Assembly: GCA_964106645.2 (NCBI GenBank)
Contig: OZ067038.1
Reading direction: 5' to 3' (one strand)
Length of the DNA stretch: 64,000 nt
DNA from: Podarcis pityusensis
Taxonomy: Eukaryota
Part shown: in pieces, positions 45,701 through 61,302 of the stretch
Layout: each line of letters opens with the position of its first letter
Numbering within the stretch: position 1 is the stretch's first letter
Translations under genes and position numbers: made by a program
The notes under the pieces: generated by a model
What the model was told of the DNA's origin: nothing
Databases searched by the model: none
What the model saw: only the letters and a program-made list of their open reading frames with translations

Positions 45701-46688
45701 ACATTTTTGCATGGTTCTATGTCTGCAGTTCTGCTTCAGTCTTATGTTTCCTGTATCTTAACATGACACAAGTATGGGAATAATGGGATTGCTATGAGGA
45801 ATATAGTTTACCCAGTCAGAGCCTGTTGGCGAGGATGATGATCGAGTACAGATTTTTTCACCAAGTCGGGCCTGGACAATCACTTGTACAGTCTGAAAGA
45901 GAAAATATGAGATTTGTGAGAAGTCAAGATTTGTTACTAAACAGGAGAGAGATGAGATGAAACACAGAAACAAAAGTAACCGCTTTCACTACTTCAGTGT
46001 TTTTGTTGGTCTTCCATGATTTTATCCTTCCCCTCTTGCTGTCAAGATCATTCACCTCTCTTGTTGGTAAAACCATACATTTCTCCTTTAATCTGTACAT
46101 ACGCTTTACCAGCTTGCTCTGCAACATCTATACTAATCTCAGTCAATCAGCGCAGGACAATCAATGGGTGCTATAGGATGCTGTCTATAAGCAAGGCTTT
46201 GATATCTAGATACCTCCCTTCCCTTCCCTAACCTCACCACTGTGTGGCTTCCTGCTTTGTCTACCTGGAATCCCAGTTCCAAACTCCCTTTCCTTGACTC
46301 TTAAGCATATGTGATTCAGTCCCAAGGTCTGCAGACAAGTCACCTGACAGTCAAATAAGAGCTTGTCATATTCAAAAGCTGGATGACTATGGGGCTTTGT
46401 TTTGTTTTGATACTATAATCTATATTTTTAGAAATCCAAATGAAGTCAGAGATCAGCAGAAAATGTTGTTTTAAAAGGTTTTGACATTGCATCAATCAAC
46501 ATTATGGCACGGCAGCATGTGGCATTGCAATAAGTACAGGGAGTTTTGGTTTGTCACAGTGCAACAGGAATGTGGATTTTTTTTTTTTTTTACTTCTATT
46601 CCAAAAAACAAAAAATTACCTTCAGAGCAAAAAATTTGATGAACTTGTCCAGGTCCTTCCTGTCCTGGGAGCTGAGATCAGTGTCCAT
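30661..46688 (-). CDS. ATG13: Autophagy-related protein 13 (HORMA domain, LIR, ULK1-binding C-terminus), 17 coding exons, 550 aa longest form
   Basis: complement(join(30661..30738,32011..32139,32919..33035,33215..33292,33610..33727,35739..35878,36410..36520,38212..38310,39883..39970,41213..41311,41602..41698,42118..42158,42861..43001,44256..44302,45010..45129,45812..45892,46620..46688)) = 1653 nt, all GT-AG. Translation [36 protein letters not shown]...DDFVMVDF...[10 protein letters not shown]. Confidence 0.97.
32011..32139 (-). CDS. ATG13: ATG13 coding exon 16
   Basis: [43 protein letters not shown]. Confidence 0.95.
32919..33035 (-). CDS. ATG13: ATG13 coding exon 15 (LIR motif DDFVMV)
   Basis: [39 protein letters not shown]. 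Confidence 0.95.
33215..33292 (-). CDS. ATG13: ATG13 coding exon 14
   Basis: [26 protein letters not shown]. Confidence 0.94.
33610..33727 (-). CDS. ATG13: ATG13 coding exon 13
   Basis: [39 protein letters not shown]. Confidence 0.95.
35739..35878 (-). CDS. ATG13: ATG13 coding exon 12
   Basis: [46 protein letters not shown]. Confidence 0.93.
36410..36520 (-). CDS. ATG13: ATG13 coding exon 11 (111-nt, cassette in mammals)
   Basis: [37 protein letters not shown]; phase 0-0. Confidence 0.92.
38212..38310 (-). CDS. ATG13: ATG13 coding exon 10 (99-nt cassette exon)
   Basis: [33 protein letters not shown]; phase 0-0; resembles the insert of the longest mammalian isoform. Confidence 0.9.
39883..39970 (-). 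CDS. ATG13: ATG13 coding exon 9
   Basis: [29 protein letters not shown]. Confidence 0.94.
40263..40352. mobile_element. 90-bp hAT-type MITE
   Basis: 24-bp TIRs catagctgtcaac(g/a)tttccctttt; 8-bp TSD ctgtagaa/ctgtagag. Confidence 0.85.
40505..40570 (+). mobile_element. CR1 3-prime tail remnant
   Basis: gggttggactagaggacccttcaaactctaaaattctatgattct. Confidence 0.7.
41213..41311 (-). CDS. ATG13: ATG13 coding exon 8
   Basis: [33 protein letters not shown]. Confidence 0.95.
41602..41698 (-). CDS. ATG13: ATG13 coding exon 7
   Basis: [32 protein letters not shown]. Confidence 0.95.
41724..41757. repeat. (AAT)n/(TAT)n microsatellite just upstream of the ATG13 exon 7 acceptor
   Basis: Direct reading. 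Confidence 0.9.
42118..42158 (-). CDS. ATG13: ATG13 coding exon 6
   Basis: [14 protein letters not shown]. Confidence 0.93.
42861..43001 (-). CDS. ATG13: ATG13 coding exon 5
   Basis: [47 protein letters not shown]. Confidence 0.95.
44256..44302 (-). CDS. ATG13: ATG13 coding exon 4
   Basis: [16 protein letters not shown]. Confidence 0.95.
45010..45129 (-). CDS. ATG13: ATG13 coding exon 3
   Basis: [40 protein letters not shown]. Confidence 0.95.
45228..45390. mobile_element. Degenerate Tc2/pogo-like MITE
   Basis: ta|ctgtatttactcaaatgtaatgcacac with inverted gtgcgcattagattt and gtacacattagattcg copies. Confidence 0.5.
45812..45892 (-). CDS. ATG13: ATG13 coding exon 2
   Basis: [27 protein letters not shown]. 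Confidence 0.95.
46620..46688 (-). CDS. ATG13: ATG13 coding exon 1 (exon starts 46701)
   Basis: [23 protein letters not shown]. Confidence 0.95.
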
Positions 46689-48321
46689 TGCATATGGAAA
46701 TCTAGAATAGAACAGGCATAAATATTCCAATTTGTTACTAATAGAAGAGCTTACTATATTATTTAAACTAATCAAAGTTAATGAACTTCAGGAAACTATG
46801 GTAATCTTAAAGAGACATAAAACTAATCTTAACCTTGCTGAGATAAATTTGTGTGATTTACATTAATAAACTACTAGCCACGAAGAGAATATGCACCAGT
46901 GAAAAGTTTATGTGCATTTTGAGAATCAGCTCAGTTGTTATGGGAACTGGAGCAGGAAAAGATCACATTTTATTTAAGCTGCTGAACTTGCTAGAACTAA
47001 GTGCCAAATGAGTTTGGTCATTATATGCATTTAAAGAAGCACATTTGTACAAAGCAATGAGAGTCTACACATGGAAGTCATTCTTTGCATAAAAATTGAC
47101 CTATGTAGGCAGCAGAGCAGTACTGGCAGGTAACTGACCCCCTGATGGCAGTATAGCTGATGATATTTTTATTAAGTCCTCCAATTGTGTTGCTGGAGTG
47201 GATATGTGGGCAGACCTTGCATTTGTCATGTCACAGCCCTACTGTAGCTTAGTCATACTTATGAGCAGGTGCTAGTCTGTGAAAGTTCATGCCATAATAA
47301 ATGTCTTCAAGATACCCCCAGACACTCCCCACCATCCCATCTCTCCACCATCCCAGAATGCTTCACAGGTACATTCCTTGAAACAATATAATGTTAAAAT
47401 GCAATGGACTCAGCACTGGGCAAAAGTGCAAAGTACACCTGAATAATACTGTCCCTTTCTCTAAACAGGTGTTATATTTGATAAACTATTTCATTTCTTG
47501 ATAAATGAACAATGATACCTACCTAGTTATCATGAAACTGTGACAGATAAAATGCAGTGTAGAACAAAAAGGGCCAACAGATTTGACCTAAGCTGTAGTT
47601 AGGAAAATTTGCATGTTTGCTTGCTGAAAATAAAGTTTTATATATCAGAATTTGACCAATATATGGATCATGAGCTGGATACAGACTAAGTCGTGCTTGA
47701 GAAGACCCACTGAAATCAATGGAACACAAATTGACTAACTTGTCCCCTGAATTTGAGTGGATCATGCTAAACATCACACACTATTTTTCTCAGTGATCTA
47801 CCAATGTTACTGAACACAGCTGGAGCCTTAATGTCAGAATATTTATTTTCAGCCCAGAGGATAACATTATCTAAAAGGTGATATTTTTTACCTATGAGCT
47901 AGCCAGGTCAGGGAACTATTGGGTTCTAGGCTTCAGAAAGCTTTTTTGCAACTGACATCCCCATCCTCACATGAAAATCAATACACACAAACTGTAGCAC
48001 TTATCAAAATTTTCATTTTTGAAGTTTTGAAGAAAAACTTCCATTATATAATGGAAATTAACACAAATTCACATATGTGACACACCTTCTTTGTGATGGT
48101 CTATTGTATATTTCAGACATGCTTGTGCTTTACTGCATGGTGGTAATTTCCACGGGACCAATCCTACTCTAAACCCTTGTTGCTTTTAGTGCCTCTTTCC
48201 TGAGTAACTATAATACACAGCATATCTAAAGCATAATATTTCATTTATTATTATTTATATAACACTTTTCAGGAAAATCTCACAAAGCGGTTTACAAAAA
48301 AAATTAAATTAATAAGTATTA

Positions 48322-48965
48322 CCGTATTTTTCGTCCCATAGGACGCACCTAGTTTTTTTTTGGGGGGGGGGAAATAAAGGAAAAATTTTTTCCCTTTATT
48401 TCCCCCCCAAAAGCAGGTCGGGGAAACTGAACAAGGTCGAGGAACAGCGGGATGGCGGCGCTGCGCCTCCCTGCTGTCCCCCGAGCTTGTGGGGCTGGCC
48501 GATGTCTGCCCGGCGCGCGGGGCGCTCTGCTTCAGGGCGCCCCGCCCGCTGGGCAGCAGGCTGCTATCCGCAGCGTGGGGAGCCCTGCAGGGAACTCCTG
48601 CAGGGCTCCCCACGCTGCGGATGTGTTCCCGAAGCGCCGGGCGCTCTGCTTTCAGGGTGCCCGGCGCTCCGGGAAGCAGGCTGCTATCCGCAGCCTAGAA
48701 ATCCCTGCAGGACCTCCCGCAGGCCTGCCTAGGCTGCGGATGTGTTCCCGAAGCGCCGGGCGCTTGCTTTCAACGCGCCCGGCACTCTGGGAAGCAGGCT
48801 GCGGATGTCTTCCTGAAGCCTGGAGAGCGAGAGGGGTTGGTGCGCACCGACCCCTCTCGCTCTCCAAGCTTCAGCGAAAGCCTGCATTCGCCCCATAGGA
48901 CGCACCCAGATTTCCCCTTCATTTTTGGAGGGGAAAAAGTGCGTCCTATAGGGTGAAAAATACGG
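48322..48965. mobile_element. Young Tc2/pogo-like non-autonomous DNA transposon with GC-rich internal palindromic repeats
   Basis: TIRs ccgtatttttc(gtcccatagg/accctatagg)acgcac; TA TSD (48320-21, 48966-67); CpG-rich interior. Confidence 0.9.
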
Positions 48966-49312
48966 TAATTAAAACGGAGTAATAAAGCAGCAAAAACAAA
49001 TTACAATGACTTTTTTTCCAAAAGCTAGATATTGCCTTCTCTCAGATCAAAACTGTTCTTCAATAACACTGTGGTGGCAGGTTTCTTTTTACAGGGTAAG
49101 GAAACAGCTTTCTTTGCTCTCCATTCTGGCAGACACATTTAAAACAAAGGGTGTTAAGAAATGAGTAACCTCAACCCATATAGTATTTCAATGAGAATAC
49201 AGGATGGACAATTATACTGGTTATGTCTCTCAGTGCAGTGATTCTAGAACCTTCACAAGGTACTAGAATATCAGAGATACTTCATGATTCTCAGGTTACA
49301 GATCATTCACTT

Positions 49313-49902: not shown

Positions 49903-49947
49903 CTAGGAAGGAGAGTTTGTGGGAATCCACTGTAAGTTACTGATTTC
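49903..49947 (-). other. ATG13: Candidate 45-nt non-coding (5-prime UTR) cassette exon of ATG13
   Basis: Minus strand: ttttttaattcag|GAAATCAGTAACTTACAGTGGATTCCCACAAACTCTCCTTCCTAG|gtactg. Confidence 0.45.
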
Positions 49948-50469
49948 CTGAATTAAAAAACAACAGCTACATGTAATAATAATCATAAATTATTTAACAA
50001 CATTAGAAGAAAACTGACTATATAATATTTTGGGGCAGTAAGAATATGTTGCAGTATGGAGTGCTTCTGTATGGTGCTCCAGTCAGCCAAGCCTTCCTTC
50101 CTTACACTCCTGGCATCACCCACCTCAGTCAACGTACTCAGCCTTCAATGGGCTGTTTTGACTCCCCTGCCTCAACCTAAAGATTTTTAGTACTTTTGCA
50201 AGCTGGGATACCCAGAAGCCTGCTGATATCTCTCTCTTGTGCATGCATGGTAATGTTTTGATTACATAAACACTGGCACTTGGATAATTGAATTTGCTCT
50301 TAGTACAGATTCTATGATAGAAAGCATATGTTTATAAACTTGACAAGCTGGATCTCATTTTGTTCTGGAATGAAAATTATTTCTGTTACATTATGAACAT
50401 ATATTTCTAAATTTGGAGAAAATACTAAATATGATGTCCTAAAGACCTATGGTTCACTTATCCCCATTT

Positions 50470-50681
50470 CTTCCAGTAGCACCTTAAAGACCAACTAAGT
50501 TAGTTCTTGGTATGAGCTTTCGTGTGCAAGCACACTTCTTCAGATACACACTGTGTATCTGAAGAAGTGTGCTTGCACACGAAAGCTCATACCAAGAACT
50601 AACTTAGTCGGTCTTTAAGGTGCTACTGGAAGGAATTTTTTTGTTTTGACTATGGCAGACCAACACGGCTACCTATCTGTA
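50470..50681. mobile_element. Penelope-like retroelement terminal fragment with inverted duplication
   Basis: 81-bp inverted arms (50470..50550 / 50552..50632), PLE-type tail gactatggcagaccaacacggctacc, 14-bp TSD acttatccccattt (50456..50469 / 50682..50695). Confidence 0.85.
50555..50592 (+). ncRNA. Minimal type I hammerhead ribozyme motif (PLE type); mirror copy on minus strand at 50510..50547
   Basis: GUAU-CUGAAGA-A-GUGUGC-UU-GCACAC-GAAA-GC-UC-AUAC: helix I GUAU/AUAC, catalytic core, helix II, palindromic AGCU in place of helix III. Confidence 0.7.
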
Positions 50682-52079
50682 ACTTATCCCCATTTATTAT
50701 ATTTCCTAAAATAGTGAGACAGCTTACAAGAATTCCCCATTTTGTACCTCCTGAGGGCTGCTTCCAATGTGCATAGTATGTGTACCTACAACACTGCCCA
50801 CTATGTGCAAGAACCATATTCTGTTTGATTTGTGTGCGCACTACAGATGTCATCAAAAGCTACGGCTGGCTCTGGGGTCTCTCAGTGAATGCAGCATACA
50901 TGAAAATAAACTAGAGCAGACATAAAATTCTAACACTTTACAAGGAACCCTATTGGCAGATATAGTACACAGAGGCATATGCCTTAATTCCTGTAAATAT
51001 GAAGCAGCCCTATTTTAGGTTTTGAGGTAGATTTTCTTCTTGATAGGAACCAAACTATGATTATCAACTTTTTTATTCTTGTTGTTACAACAAACTGGAA
51101 GGTAGCAAACATTGCTTAGTCCCTAAGTTAATATAAGTTCTAGGGGAAAAGAAATGTAATTTTAAGGCAAATAAAAATATGTTTCTAAAATGCCTTTTCT
51201 CTTTTATTGAAATTCAAAAAAGCCAGTGATTCTAACTAAACTATTTTTTGTTTATGCGAATGGCCTAGTTTTTCCATTACGCAATAGGTATTTTAAAGAC
51301 CCAGAGCCACATTCCAATGCAGAGTTAGGCACACCAAGACTGAAATACTAAAAGTATTAACTAGAGAGAAAGTCCCACTCCTCGTAGCAGAACTGCACTG
51401 TTTTGGTTAAGATTTCAGTGAACTTAAGCATACTTGAATTTGTGTTGAATTGTGGCCCAAGAGTTAGAAAAGCCTCACATTATTTCAGTCACATTGTTGC
51501 CTGAAAGATTTAGAAATATCTCTAGATCAAAAGACCATGAGGTCAGATCACATGATGAAGACAAAGTATGCAGCATAAAGACTGGCAGCTTGATCCTCAA
51601 AGGAACACATGATGTAGAACTAGTTAGTGAAAATAGGCCCTGTGTTACTGGAATCCTTTGAATACTGTTGCTTTAAAGCAGCTTAATCAGTTATCAACAG
51701 CAGATCTGAAACAACGTCAGTCAACAAAACTCCCTTTTGGCAAGGTCATGAAATAAGTTACAGATATATTCAAGCTCCCACATCACACATGCTAAGAAAT
51801 TTAGTGGTGCAGCTGGGTTTAAACCCAAGGGCATGCACGTGCCACGTCATACGTTGACTACATCACATCCTCAAGGAGGTTTTATTTTCAGTACTCCTTA
51901 GGTTCTGAAAGGTTTGTCTGGAAATAAACAGTCCTCACAGCCCTATTTTCCCTACTACCCACAACTCTATACAATCAGACTGTGATCCGCTGCTCTCCCC
52001 ACCCCTACCTACTCTGTGGGAGCAGACCCATCACCCTACTCCAGCAGAAGCCTAGTCGAAACCCATCAAATTATGTGCA

Positions 52080-53330
52080 TCTGAGGTGCAGGGGGGAATT
52101 ACCTGCGGGGAGACGGCTGAGGTGACGGCTCGGGGTCTCATTCCGGGGACGAGCCCGGAGGCTATCTTAGTCCCTCCTCATGGTCAGACCCAGTGGGCCT
52201 CTCCGAAATCCTCGCGGCTGGTTTCGACTCGAAGGGCTGGAAGGTGCCGCCCTCGCCGCCTCCTGTGGCTTCTTTCCTCAGAGAGGAGACGTGGCAGTGA
52301 ACGTCCTTTGCTGGCGTCACCTCAGGAACCCCAAGACCCCTCCGGCCCCGCAGACTTGAGGGCCGCCCGCCTCTCGTCTCCCTTCTTCCTGGCGCACCTT
52401 TCGCGCTCGGCTCCGCTGCCCAATTCCCGCGCGGGACAAGGCTTTTTCCTCAGCCCCGTCTGGGAATATGGCGGGGGGGGGGGTGGTTCGTAGATTCGTA
52501 GCCCAAGCCTGCCGGGAAAACAGCGCCTGCTGGGGGGAAGGGATGTTGGGACCTTTAGTCCCGAGGCGGGTGACCAATATCCGGCCTCCACTCGCCGCTG
52601 CCCAGCGCTTGGTCCAGCCCAGGGAAGGGGTTGGGAATGCCCGAGGCTGGCTGGCCCGCGTACGAGTGGAGTCTCCGCTTGCGCCGCCCCTTCGAGGAAG
52701 GCTCTGAGGAACCGGCGCCGGCCTTCGAGGAGAAGTCGCTCAGTCTGCCGGCCCTACGAGCCGACCTGCCCGTCGTCGCAGGTTACACAGCCAGAGTGTC
52801 CCTCACGGCCGCAGACTCCCCCTGCAGCCGCCGACACCGCCGCCATTGCTGCTGTTTGTTTTCATCCGCTCAGGGCGAGCGGGGAGCGCTGACTCCGCAT
52901 CCGCCGCGGCACTTTCCACAGAGACGAGGACCCGCCTCCCGTTATCAGCGACCCCCCCCCGCCCCAGTGGGCCAGCCCGCAGCCGTTAATTATCGGCGGG
53001 AGGCGAGAATGCCCACCTGGGAGGCTTAAAGGGGTGAAGGGCCGGTCTCGTGAGGAATCTGCGATTGGGAATGAACAGGCCGGGCGTCGTGAGAGGGACT
53101 TGGAGCTCCGCCTCGGGATCCGGGTGCTGGGAAGGGACTTCGGGACGGGCTCCCTTGCGCTATCGGGGTAAATCGGGGGCCCGGCGGAGAGGGAGGTGTG
53201 GACGCGTAGCCGCGCCGCGAAACATGCTTATATCCTGCGCTTTCAGTCTTTCTCCAAGCGCAGAACCCCTCTCCCGCTTCCGTCCACCCTTGCGCCCCCC
53301 CCCAGTCTTCTCCCCGCTTCTCTAGGGAGG
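52080..53330. promoter_or_regulatory. CpG-island bidirectional promoter shared by ATG13 (-) and HARBI1 (+)
   Basis: Very high GC/CpG against a CpG-poor background. GC boxes, CCAAT boxes (~52574 and reverse ~53064), no TATA. Head-to-head gene arrangement as in mammals. Candidate HARBI1 exon-1 donor GGG|gtaaat at 53168. Confidence 0.9.
52103..52920 (-). other. ATG13: ATG13 first (non-coding) exon region with uORFs; 5-prime boundary approximate, internal splicing possible
   Basis: CpG island, strong donor CCGCAG|gtaatt at 52102, YY1-like ATGGCGGC near 52846. Confidence 0.6.
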
Positions 53331-54740: not shown

Positions 54741-56692
54741 TTGGTAGCAGAGTCTGTATGTATGCTGGCACGTCTTCTGAGTTGGTTTATTGACGTAGGT
54801 AAAACCTGCCTTGTTTTTGACAACTTGCCTGGTACTCATGGGTGACCAAGAAATTCATGTAGGTGAATGAACAGGTTGGTGGAGGAGGAGTGGGTTACTT
54901 GGTCTCTTTTCTGCCAGTCCACTTGGTTTCTTTGCTAGCCAGGCAGGAAGGAAAGCCTATTCTTTCATAACCACGAAATAGGCTAGTGAAGGAGGAGCAG
55001 ATATACCCTTCCTTCCTACATGCCCTTTCACTTAGCAAGCTGGTTAAAAAAGCTGACTTCTAAGAGTCTAGTAGCTTGCATTTTCATGTTGGCCACAGAA
55101 GAGGGGTCTTTCCCTCCTCCATGGCCACCATGGCAACACAGACTTCTGGCTTCTTAGTAAGCTGTGGTGATGAGCTAATTACTTTTGTGGGCTTATTTTC
55201 AATGATGGCTAATACTAGGTAATCCCTCAGTTGTTTGGGGGAATTCACACCTTTGGTATCAGATGTTCATAGAGGAACCAGACCAGATTCAATCCATTGG
55301 TTTTTGGTTTTTATTATTATTAAATTGTTAATCTTGTGAGTGCACAATAACACAACTATTATGAGAGAGGGGATGACAATCAAGCATTGTCCATACATTC
55401 AGAGGGACAGAATGTTATGTTTATGTAATGCAACACATGGGTATATGAAGAGGGGGAAATGCTTATTACATGAGGAGTGAGGAGATAATGCAAACTATTA
55501 ACATTTTGGCTCTTTCCAGCAATGGACTCCAACTGAGAACAGAAAAATTCTCTTGTAGAGATGCCACCCTAAACTTATAGGCTATATCTGATACCAAAGT
55601 GCCCCTTACATTGCTATTTAATTAGATACCTACCTGCCTCCTTTGTATTATAACTACTGGGAGTCACTGGTGGACATTAAAAAACAGGATACAAGAAATA
55701 CAGTATTACTTTGTTGAAACTTTGATTTTGCAAGATTGGAACTCCTTGGTTCTCAAGACAGCTCCTTGCCACTAGAATATGACTGACTTGTTTAACAATG
55801 GAAAAGAGTGGTTGGGTGAAGCATCTCTGTTTATATAACTTGCTCTTCTTAGGCACATAGTTTCAGTACATTTATCAACTCCAGTTGTTCCAGAATTCTA
55901 GATTTTGTGTGCACTTGGACAAACAGAAAAAATATCCTTGAGGGACAGCACAGCTTATTAACAAGCATTAGAACAAAGCAACTCTTTGTTTCTCAGTGCT
56001 TTACGTTTCTAAAAATATCACCAGCTTAAGTTTTGCCAATTCACACCCTCATGCCTCATACAGCCAATTAATTTTAATGCAGTAACACATAAAGAAAGAA
56101 ATTTTCCTAGTCTTGTTTAACCGGTTCAGAGAGAGAATGTAAACATAGCACTAATTTATTGTGAAATATGTACTCAACAGTTCCAATTTTGCGTATGACC
56201 CAAGGTCAGTACTAATTGTGCATTCTTGCTTTCTCAAGAATGTCCCATGACCCTGTGTGAAATTATATACAGCTCCAAAAAAAATTCCACTGGAAATTTC
56301 CCAGAACTACGACCATGATTCATTGGCTCTTTCATTGAAATTAATAGCAGAATCCCATGGAGATAATATTGTCAACTTTTCTGGTAGAATGTTATCTGGT
56401 AGGACTCAGCCACGTTAATAGGACTGTGGGAAAGTTTTCTATATTTCTTTTCCTTGTGTTCTCAGTTGTATGATCTGGTCTCATAGCAATTAGTGTAAAT
56501 GCCAAGTTAAATTAAAGTGTACATTTGTAAACTAATTTCAAAACCCTATTTACTTAAGCCAATAGGTTTATTTGTGTGTAATTAGTATGAAATTGACAGT
56601 AGAGTCAAGTAGGCTGTTAGGATCCATGTCCTCAATTTTCCTTTTTTTTTGCTCCAGTGTAGGTGAGTAGAGAGAAGAAAGATCAACCCATC

Positions 56693-57362
56693 ATGGCTGT
56701 TCCCATAGCCATTCTTGATTGTGATCTCTTGCTATATGGTCGTGGGCATCGAACACTTGATCGTTTCAAACTGGAGGATGTGACTGATGAATATCTGGTG
56801 TCTATGTATGGCTTCCCACGTCACTTCATTTACTATCTGGTGGATTTTCTGGGTGCCAGCCTTTCTCGTCCTACACAACGATCAAGGGCCATTAGCCCAG
56901 AGACGCAAATTCTTGCTGCATTAGGTTTTTACACTTCTGGTTCTTTCCAGACTCGCATGGGAGATGCCATTGGCATCAGCCAGGCCTCTATGAGCCGTTG
57001 TGTTGCCAATGTTACTGAGGCCCTGGTGGAGAGGGCATCTCAGTTCATTCATTTCCCAGATGATGAAGTGTCGGTGCATCATCTGAAAGATGACTTTTAT
57101 GGGCTGGCAGGTATGCCAGGGGTACTAGGACTAGTTGATTGCAACCATGTCGCAATAAAGGCACCCAGTGCTGAGGACTTGTCATATGTGAATAGAAAGG
57201 GCCTTCATTCTTTAAACTGCCTGATGGTTTGTGACGCCAGGGGAATGCTACTGAGTGCGGAAACACACTGGCCAGGCAGCTTGCAGGACTGTGCTGTGCT
57301 GCAGCAGTCAGCCCTCAGGAACCAGTTTGAAGCTGGCATGCACAAAGATGGCTGGCTACTTG
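56693..57362 (+). CDS. HARBI1: HARBI1 coding exon 1
   Basis: ATG in cccatcATGg context; ends WLL-G|gtaagt. Confidence 0.95.
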
Positions 57363-58448
57363 GTAAGTTCTTTCTCATGACTGGCATCTTTGAAAGTCTA
57401 TTTTGGTGGAATTTCTGTTTGGTTCTGTGACATGCCACATAACATTTATGTGTCAAAACTGCAGATTTTACAGTTCTCCCTCTATAAAGATAAATCAAAC
57501 AAAGGTAGCATGAAACAGAATAATAGGGTAGCATAAAACATAGAATCTTAGAGTTGGAAGGGACCCCAAGGGTCATGTAGCCCAACCCCTTGCAATGCAG
57601 GAACCTCTGCAAAAGCATCAGTGACAGATGGCCATCCAACCTTTGGTTAAAAACCTTCAAGGAGGGAGAGTCCACCACTTCTCGTGGTCAACAGCTCTGA
57701 CTGTCTGAAAGTTTTACCGAATGTTTAGTCTGAATCTCCTTTCTTGCAACTTGAAGCCATTGGTTCGAGTCCTACCCTCCAGAGCAGGAGAAAACAAGCA
57801 TGCTCCCTCCTCCATGTGGCAGGCCTTAAGATATTTGAAGATGGCTATCATATCTCCTCTGAGTCTCCTCTTTCCCAAGCTAAACATACCCAGCTCCTTC
57901 AAGCGCTCCTCATAAGGCTTAGTTTCCAGACCCTTGATCATCTTGGTTGCCCTCCTGGCTTCATACACCTATCTGGCTTCATATAGATGCCTGGTTTTAT
58001 TATCAGGTGATGGAATTATTTGCACTCTCCTGTCCCTGTTTGGTTTGTGATCTTTCTTTTTCTTTTGACAGGTGATAGTTCATTCTTTCTTCGCACTTGG
58101 CTAATGACCCCTCTGCATATTCCTGAAACGCCTGCAGAGTGCCGGTATAACATGGCACATTCAGCCACTCACAATGTCATTGAACGTACATTCAGGACAA
58201 TTCGGTCCCACTTCCGTTGCCTGGATGGGTCAAAGGGCACGTTGCAGTATTCTCCCGAGAAGGCCAGCCACATCATTCTGGCTTGCTGTGTGCTTCATAA
58301 CATTTCTCTAGAGCATGGACTGGATGTGTGGTCTTCCCAAACGATGGGACAGATGGAACAGCCAGAGGAAGAATATGAACATATGGAATCACTTGACTCT
58401 GAAGCTGATCGAGTTCGTCAGGAATTATTACTCGCTCATTTTAGCTAA
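56693..58448 (+). CDS. HARBI1: Putative nuclease HARBI1 (Harbinger transposase-derived, DDE), 2 coding exons, 348 aa
   Basis: join(56693..57362,58072..58448) = 1047 nt. Translation [27 protein letters not shown]...LVDCNHV...WLLGDSSFFL...NVIERTF...ELLLAHFS. Confidence 0.97.
57536..57960 (-). mobile_element. CR1 LINE 3-prime fragment in HARBI1 intron
   Basis: [44 protein letters not shown]...[19 protein letters not shown] and ttccaactctaagattctatg tail. Confidence 0.93.
58072..58448 (+). CDS. HARBI1: HARBI1 coding exon 2 (stop)
   Basis: ttttgacag acceptor; [14 protein letters not shown]...ACCVLHN...HFS-TAA; AATAAA at 58537 and 58769. Confidence 0.95.
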
Positions 58449-59429: not shown

Positions 59430-60530
59430 TTACGGAGTCTTCTTCTTTGGCGATCACTCATAACCGAGTAAGATTGTCTTCCATAAACACGGTTTTTGTT
59501 TTTTTATAACAATTTATTAATTTTCCAAAAAGAACATAAAAAATAAACATAAAAACAACAATATATAATGGAGAAAAAACCCATCATAATCAAAAATTTT
59601 AAACCATTATTTTTGCTTGACTTCCCTCCCCTCCCCCTCTTGGTTTCATTGTTTAATACTTGTTCGTGCACGTCCTTATAACCTTATAATCTTAATAATT
59701 CAACTTTTAAACTTTGTTCATCTTAATACAAGTGAGTTTTAAAAGTTATACTAACGTGAAAGTCTGTACACAAAGCTTAAAAGAAGAGCATTAAACCTTT
59801 ACCCCTTTTTTATTATTCAAAGTCCTCTTTCTGTCTTGGGTTCTACATTAACTGGTTTATCCTGTATAGTTCAATAGTTTAGTTTACCAGTCTTCTTCGT
59901 CTTCTTTAACGGAGGCTTATTCCTTCTGCAGGGGCTGGCTGGTCTTGGCCTGGCGTCCAATCTTGCGTACTGGAACAATGTCTTTTGTTCAATAAGTCCA
60001 ACAAGTTCTGTACATCTCCATGTAATAACTTCAGTTTTTTTTAACAACAATCATTTCCCAATTTGTTTTCAAATCTCTATATGTCTTATCCCAGGCTTTT
60101 TTAATGATTTTACATTGCCGCCACATATAATAACCTTTTATGCTTTTTGCTCTCCCTTTCTGTTTTTTCTCTATCACAGTCAAAGCCTTCTCACACAGGG
60201 TATCATTTTTATCTTGGACCAAGTCATAGGCCTCCCAAATCAATTCACACAAGGTGTCATTAACTCATAAACACAGTTTTAACAGTGATTCCATAAGGGA
60301 CTATGGAGGCCAATTCTGGATCTACACATCCTTCCACAGTGGGGACATAGGTTTCCAGGCGGGAGTTGATCACTGTGAGGGTTTGCCAAGTGTGCCTTCC
60401 TCTTAGCATGTTTCTCCCTTTCGTCCTGAGTTCGAGTGTCTTCAAAGCCCATGACACCTTTGGTAAAGGCTGTTCTCCAATTGGAGTGCTCGCAGGCCAG
60501 TGTTTCCCAGTTGTTGGTGTTTATGGTTTC
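59430..60530 (-). mobile_element. RTE-clade LINE 3-prime fragment, split by a nested insertion
   Basis: WETLACEHSNWRTAFTKG...CPHCGRMCRSRIGLHS at 60279..60530; its 3-prime tail continues at 59430..59496. Confidence 0.8.
59497..60265 (-). mobile_element. L1-type insertion nested in the RTE fragment
   Basis: Poly-T at 59497, 15-bp TSD cataaacac(g/a)gtttt (59482..59496 / 60266..60280), ttgacttccctcc motif shared with the L1 at ~6560. Confidence 0.75.
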
Positions 60531-60945
60531 CAGTGATGGGTTAAGGATTTGGTTCCAGCACCCTTTTTCCATTCTTAACTACTTCTACCCCAGGTGAGGC
60601 CCTGGCCTGGAAAAGAAGTCCTGATGGCACTCCATGCCCAGTACAATCTCAACAATTGGGGGGGGGGGGGAAACCTGCCCTCTCAAAAAAACCTGAGGTG
60701 GCGCAAAGAGCCTTGGCCCCTTGAAGCCAGTGCTTATGATAGGAATAAATTCTGACCTGCTTATTTGTCTTGGTAATGTTGCAGCTAGATCTAACTGTGT
60801 GCCAAATATATAGAAAGCTAGGAACCATGGTGAGGAAAAGCTTTTTGAACTCATTTGTAGAAAAATTGACTCCATATTCCAAAATTTATTTTACAAGATA
60901 TGTAAAGTACTTCTGTAATTTAAATGTTTGCTATGGTATTTGAGA

Positions 60946-61302
60946 TCCGGGACACGGGTGGCACTGTGGGTTAAACCACAGAGCCTAGGACTTGCCAATC
61001 AGAAGGTCAGCGGTTCGAATCCCCGTGACGGGATGAGCTCCCGTTGCTCGGTCCCTGCTCCTGCCAACCTAGCAGTTCGAAAGCAAGTCAGAGTACAAGT
61101 AGATAAATAGGTACCGCTCCAACAGGAATGTAAACGGCGTTTCCGTGCACTGCTCTGGTTCGCCAGAAGCAGCTTAGTCATGCTGGCCACGTGACCTGGA
61201 AGCTGTATGCCGGCTCCCTTGGTCAATAAAGCGAGATGAGCGCCGCAACCCCAGAGTCGGCCACGACTGGACCTAATGGTCAGGGGTCCCTTTACCTTTT
61301 AC
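60946..61302 (+). mobile_element. Sauria SINE (second subfamily)
   Basis: ggttcgaatcc B box, ACCTTT tail, 15-bp TSD ctatggtatttgaga (60931..60945 / 61303..61317). Confidence 0.92.

Follow-up and report, generated by a model that had tools for sequence, protein, structure and literature searches.

The window, a 64-kb stretch of Podarcis pityusensis DNA, contains exons of ATG13 on its minus strand. Two exon frames matched ATG13 chains in the PDB (E about 1e-14 and 5e-20), in agreement with the host gene and strand named in an earlier sequence-only reading of this DNA; neither a search of the genome with the PF10033 profile nor Pfam scans of four ATG13 exon frames taken singly gave a match. The first coding exon (46620..46688, minus strand, ATG at 46688) was assigned by its translation and by adjacent exons that match ATG13, its N-terminal match being partly our assumption. 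A 45-nt stretch flanked by AG..GT (49903..49947, minus strand) is, from its sequence only, a candidate ATG13 5'-UTR exon. It had been placed about 520 nt from the insertion described below and was found at 523 nt; the distance thus held, and the exon stays a candidate. Run X15, which is RNA-like and from another species, covers neither this stretch nor the coding exon at 46688. RNA-like contigs of another species cover a GC-rich region at 52103-52769, and because the insertion lies between this region and the first coding ATG, it likely sits in the ATG13 5'-UTR intron.

The surroundings contain several further features. At 52330, in what is likely the first ATG13 exon, three sequencing runs (X1, X2 and X3) all have 19 extra bases that are absent from the window, and this absence is likely an allele or an assembly error. 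Two DDE_Tnp_4 exons on the plus strand (56663-58448) form a gene which we take to be HARBI1-like and which lies head to head with ATG13 across a CpG island. The same intron carries a high-copy element at 48318-48969 whose 31-nt terminal inverted repeats are 90% complementary and whose interior contains many GC-rich hairpins; it looks like a MITE, and we guess it to be of Tc1/pogo type. Frames at 57714-57968, 60279-60578 and about 61000-61300 presumably represent CR1, RTE and Sauria SINE repeats, which they resemble.

The insertion contains two reverse-complementary arms of 81 bp (50470-50550 and 50552-50632) with a single central base (50551) between them. Sequence comparison and folding confirmed these arms and their one mismatch: the hairpin has a fold z-score of -23, and none of 200 shuffled sequences was equally stable. 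The 1-nt loop proposed earlier cannot form, the fold prediction giving a loop of 3 nt. The mismatch involves A at 50493 and C at 50609, of which the left arm has the family base; in RNA of the minus strand (that of ATG13), the two positions are predicted to pair as G-U, which would leave the stem without interruption.

The insertion is flanked by an exact repeat of 14 bp, the longest one found, with the left copy at 50456..50469 and the right copy at 50682..50695 (both given on the plus strand). One contig each from run X2 (same species label as the assembly, other study) and run X3 (sister species) joins 50455 to 50682 and contains the 14-mer once, which represents the empty site. The target-site duplication noted before is therefore real, and the insertion added 226 bp relative to the empty site. 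The first 3 nt of the right copy (ACT) are identical to the usual 3' end of the element, thus 11-14 bp of this copy are derived from the target. In run X1, one contig (48943-50495) enters the left arm with zero differences and a second (50660-52483) enters the right end; both outer junctions are present, with the element 3' ends facing outward. The insertion is accordingly not fixed, being present in one of two runs of the same species, as its proposed youth and presence/absence polymorphism had implied. An assembly artefact, an objection raised earlier, could account for a palindrome centre that none of the contigs spans, and run X1 may be the assembly's own sample. Against it stand both outer junctions in the X1 contigs, an exact duplication compared with the empty allele, and about 1,000 sister palindromes with junction sequences that vary over hundreds of loci; we regard an artefact as next to impossible. 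The hairpin in the ATG13 intron consists of the 5' leader of a Penelope-like element that inserted recently and is polymorphic, and the locus is an ordinary young insertion that can serve as a presence/absence marker.

Comparison with other copies revealed the composition of the insertion (in element coordinates, 0 is the C of CUGAAGA). The short, tail-less arm (50470..50549, sense on the minus strand) comprises element positions -6 to +73, and the long, tailed arm (50553..50684, plus strand) positions -6 to +125. The 3 nt at the head-to-head junction (50550..50552) are a plain continuation of the element on neither arm and may be an untemplated addition or a 2-nt slip. The tail between the two clustered 3' ends of the family (about +90 to +125; 50649..50684, plus strand) carries the first 11 codons of the element open reading frame, which starts at +93 (ATG at 50652, MADQHGYLSVT). 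Two other identities were rejected. As a microRNA precursor (MIR1222 and others) the hairpin reached 74 bits against a gathering threshold of 90, with matches in structure only. A MITE or DNA transposon does not fit, since one arm is 52 nt longer, ends and sizes vary and the parent is a reverse transcriptase (RT) element.

To identify this parent, the 1.5-Gb genome was searched; the first DNA search favoured copies that begin like the window copy, and its 19 other loci were excluded from all frequencies. The hammerhead 35-mer has 4368 exact matches in the genome. Natural copies form a tandem unit of 3010 bp with a 910-aa open reading frame, in which RVT_1 (E 4e-12) and GIY-YIG (E 2e-4; at 22.0 bits just under the cut-off of 22.6) were detected, in line with the Penelope-like identity suggested beforehand. 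The frame is uninterrupted in four of the 11 loci examined, namely L116 (G000:C9:17784500-17793500, with two such copies in tandem), L117, L122 and L128, and the family is therefore probably still active. Like other endonuclease-bearing (EN+) Penelope-like elements, it has a single frame with RT and C-terminal GIY-YIG, present in the window copy as the 11 codons alone, as well as tandem pseudo-LTRs, an inverted 5'-truncated copy, a tail and a target duplication. The linker CX2-5CxxC of the Neptune clade was found as CNKPRCQLC between RT and EN in the protein P0001. Linkers of the CxxxxCxxC type mark Neptune/Nematis elements (PMC8557442), and on this motif the parent element would be classified as Neptune-like. 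Longer copies run upstream into the end of the frame, and at 136 places the sequence reads beyond the usual 3' end (+125) into the start of the frame; +125 is thus an internal start, as in the anole Poseidon element (PMC11167929).

The hammerhead core pattern has two matches in the window, one on each strand, and the string reported for both strands was indeed present. The plus copy occupies 50555..50592 with a predicted cut after C50588, and the minus copy, located on the ATG13 pre-mRNA, runs from 50547 to 50510 with a predicted cut after the C at 50514 (both from sequence and fold). Both have the CUGANGA and GAAA cores, the NUH site, a helix I of 4-5 bp, helix II, an extra base at 9/10.1, the pair G10.1-C11.1 and a palindromic stub for helix III, which supports their description as minimal type I hammerheads (PMC4209133). 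The earlier reading gave stem II 6 bp and a loop of 2 nt; in the fold prediction it has 5 bp and is capped by CUUG. The Rfam search suggested for their verification returned no hammerhead model among 13 weak matches at E<=10, likely because helix III is missing.

Fold predictions were compared for different contexts of the ribozyme. In a lone copy, stem I forms with a probability of about 0.65 and stem II of about 0.7. Within the palindrome the probability of stem I drops to 0 on either strand, with a penalty of 67.5 kcal/mol, so that the sequestration proposed before is also what the model predicts. That the antisense arm is transcribed before the ribozyme holds on the ATG13 strand; it is not specific for this direction, since it precedes the ribozyme on both strands. 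Sequestration is therefore independent of the direction of ATG13 and follows from the head-to-head geometry. In read-through RNA containing the upstream pseudo-LTR, stem I is likewise predicted to be blocked (probability 0.001). At L116 (-19 to +8), the model pairs the catalytic core with sequence just upstream of the presumed transcription start; read-through RNA would thus switch the ribozyme off, and RNA beginning at the start site would let it fold.

Small Penelope hammerheads reportedly cleave as dimers, according to one study. Lone minimal hammerheads have been reported to be inactive as monomers (PMC4209133; PMC11167929). The ribozymes at this locus are predicted to be locked in an inactive state inside the 81-bp duplex. 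Cleavage of the ATG13 pre-mRNA by the hammerhead appears unlikely, because the palindrome is predicted to lock stem I, published monomers do not cut and the templates that are copied are mostly uncut (see below).

The arrangement is not special to the ATG13 locus. The first 100 copies on contig C1 fall into 73 insertion clusters, and inverted pairs were the commonest form (42, two of them with a non-standard end), next to 15 long-only and 16 short-only clusters, one of the latter being the far arm of one such pair. A duplication of at least 10 bp flanks 9 of the 16 short-only clusters. Genome-wide, the search for cores lying head to head gave 1002 matches separated by no more than 30 nt (a few loci counted twice, older subfamilies included) and 564 separated by no more than 14 nt. 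The same test gave 15 matches in a segment 27 nt upstream of the core and 95 around the cleavage site, where most of the 50 matches listed fold in stem II; these counts rest on different 14-mers with unequal subfamily coverage, so their ratios are rough. Twelve cleavage-site junctions have at most 8 nt between the arms, and in three of these both arms end exactly at the cut.

The two arms of a palindrome were nearly always of different type. Of the 49 distinct places among the matches listed for the 30-nt test, 47 were used as short palindromes; 44 of these combine a long with a short arm and three continue into a tandem unit; all 25 paired long palindromes are also long plus short. No pair of two long or two short arms occurs among these 25 long and 47 short palindromes, six pairs first scored as short plus short and two unpaired loci having been assigned by eye (older subfamilies, tail on one arm). 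The 3' ends fall into two clusters at about +82 to +91 and +121 to +126, and the outer ends often share bases with the target. Target duplications measure 11-16 bp in 60 of 70 pairs, most frequently 12 bp (28 pairs). The 5' ends of the arms of long pairs are at most 30 nt apart in 11 of 25 cases (permutation mean 2.2; reached in 0 of 20000 permutations; two of 27 long loci with arms more than 60 nt apart were excluded). On the 5' side, the short arm exceeds the long one by over 50 nt in nine of the 25, and the long arm exceeds the short one by over 50 nt in five. The subfamily marker is concordant between the arms in all 66 pairs compared, and 57 of these show no difference over 70 nt. Some junctions lie on natural palindromes (the -10/0 class, stem II and AGCT). 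Short head-to-tail arrays were also observed at L036, L100, L107 and G000:C3:108157282-108157607, with periods of 74, 179, 183 and 59 bp; those examined restart at -4 to -6, in agreement with template jumps that set out from the 5' end of the RNA, and the arrays have a retrozyme-like look. Inverted pseudo-LTRs, one-sided tails and hammerheads on opposite strands have been published before (PMC8557442; PMC3846280; PMC4209133).

The 5' ends of the copies cluster immediately upstream of the hammerhead. Among the first 100 copies on contig C1, 52 begin at 0 to -12, with peaks at -6 (14 copies) and -4 (13), and tandem units begin again at -4 to -7. The base before GTGTAT in copies starting at -6 is T in 683 and C or G in 132 cases, and this could reflect an added base, a slip of 2 nt or the last base of the partner arm. 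Intact copies carry the motif TATATAG, whose first base lies 30 nt ahead of A(-7) in TTTC-A-GT, and 30 nt is the textbook spacing between TATA box and initiator. We infer that the element RNA starts at about A(-7), from a putative TATA/initiator promoter in the pseudo-LTR. TATA and initiator have been described in a rotifer pseudo-LTR (PMC3846280); the Drosophila Penelope promoter is TATA-less (PMC2377424).

Other origins of this boundary were considered. Hammerhead cleavage would place the RNA 5' end at the cut site, yet the boundary lies about 36 nt further upstream, and this origin was rejected. A stop of the RT at a predicted upstream hairpin would be expected at the 3' foot of that hairpin and not at -6. 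What speaks against the start-site reading is that the boundary resembles a 3' splice site, and in Drosophila virilis an intron does end at helix I (PMC4209133); the sequence fits, yet in none of the 73 sampled insertions is upstream element sequence joined in sense to the boundary, which disfavours splicing.

We favour, with somewhat better than even confidence, the explanation that the palindromes arise when both cut target strands each prime cDNA synthesis on one uncleaved element RNA. The pseudo-LTR promoter would yield an RNA that begins at about A(-7), with stem I of the hammerhead following 3 nt later, and the element enzyme would cut the target with a stagger of roughly 12 nt. Priming would then occur at two internal sites, one target end using the far site (+125) and the second end the near site (about +90, in the window copy +73). 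Both cDNAs would pass the uncut hammerhead and reach the RNA 5' end, where host repair would join them, in many cases adding or re-copying a few bases, followed by fill-in; the palindrome itself would be a by-product. The short arm appears to be copied from RNA and not from the first cDNA, since short-only insertions carry duplications and short arms exceed long arms. The proximity of the 5' ends in 11 of 25 pairs together with the full marker agreement argues for one template, and the scarcity of junctions at the cleavage site (12, three of them exact) argues for a template that is mostly uncut. In vitro work on the anole Poseidon protein is in keeping with these steps: the protein cuts and extends both target strands, it uses two adjacent RT start sites whose spacing equals the tail, and uncut RNA is the main substrate, hammerhead cleavage needing the protein (PMC11167929). 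Against the model, this work concerns a Poseidon and not a Neptune element, and the start site did not differ between the strands (PMC11167929).

Part of this evidence can be read differently. Coupled 5' ends and near-identical arms fit equally well with a fold-back, in which target-primed cDNA from +125 reaches the RNA 5' end, folds and serves as its own template up to a stop or cut near +90, after which the other target end is joined to the snap-back strand. Such a fold-back would also account for junctions on short palindromes and for the absence of pairs with two long arms, and the subfamily agreement may merely mirror different activity times. We consider it possible though doubtful, because nine of the 16 short-only insertions have duplications, nine of 25 pairs have a short arm that goes beyond the 5' end of the long arm from which it would have been copied, and both strands are extended in vitro (PMC11167929). 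For rotifer Penelope elements, self-priming on an antisense transcript was published as an explanation of head-to-head junctions with palindromes (PMC3846280). Here the junctions cluster at the TATA/initiator spacing of the sense strand, and the outer ends lie at two clustered sites and often share target bases, as priming on a sense template predicts, which leaves antisense self-priming highly improbable. If palindromes lose sequence from their centre at a later time, a short arm could seem longer than it was, a point that bears on the lengths used against fold-back.

A function at ATG13, through a self-cleaving, edited or diced hairpin that alters splicing of the 45-nt candidate exon or the ATG13 level, would draw on the predicted uninterrupted 81-bp duplex on the ATG13 strand, 523 nt from that candidate. 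The insertion is absent from another individual with the same species label and from a sister species, about 1,000 similar palindromes exist, and the ribozyme is predicted to be locked; a function is thus very unlikely, and the hairpin in the ATG13 pre-mRNA is most likely a near-neutral intronic passenger.

The two-primer explanation can be narrowed to a dimeric enzyme acting on one RNA with two fixed internal primer sites and a 12-nt stagger, of which inverted repeats and the one-sided tail would be direct products and in which palindrome centres would map the transcription start to the base; we hold this more specific version to be evenly balanced. The origin of Penelope inverted repeats and the one-sided tail has been described as unresolved (PMC8557442; PMC3846280), and the passages considered from a 2026 retrozyme preprint do not address it. 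The two-primer model and the start-site hotspot were not found in the openly accessible main texts searched. With thousands of near-identical copies and intact 910-aa frames, the junction statistics of this family discriminate between models and give exact predictions for in vitro work. They also suggest that the hammerheads of this Penelope-like family rarely cut the RNAs that get copied. If the more specific version is true, about 1,000 perfect leader hairpins of 80-100 bp would be a built-in source of silencing RNA against the element.

The proposed process resembles L1 twin priming, in which both target strands prime on one RNA and a head-to-head joint with microhomology or added bases results. 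The L1 cDNAs copy non-overlapping parts, giving an inversion, whereas here they would copy the same part from two fixed sites, giving an inverted duplication. Metazoan Penelope-like elements have the same minimal hammerheads, with a short helix I, the extra base between 9 and 10.1, G10.1-C11.1, palindromic 15.2-16.2 and no helix III (PMC4209133). Hammerhead pairs on opposite strands are 100-700 bp apart there (PMC4209133), whereas the copies described here are only about 7 nt apart and mutually antisense, and therefore form a duplex and not a double hammerhead. With the anole Poseidon element PAc, the family has in common internal RT starts at two sites a tail apart, the use of uncut RNA, cutting and extension of both target strands and the hammerhead type (PMC11167929). 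The main text on PAc does not treat inverted copies, and in PAc the open reading frame starts at stem II and RT about 111-118 nt into it, in contrast to the frame at +93 and starts at about +90 and +125 in this family (PMC11167929). Elements of the Neptune clade have the same single frame with RT and C-terminal GIY-YIG, the CX2-5CxxC linker, pseudo-LTR tandems, an inverted 5'-truncated copy, a tail of 30-40 bp at one end and a hammerhead in the pseudo-LTR (PMC8557442). Their tail was ascribed to resolution by the endonuclease (PMC8557442), whereas in the family described here it would represent the gap between two priming sites.
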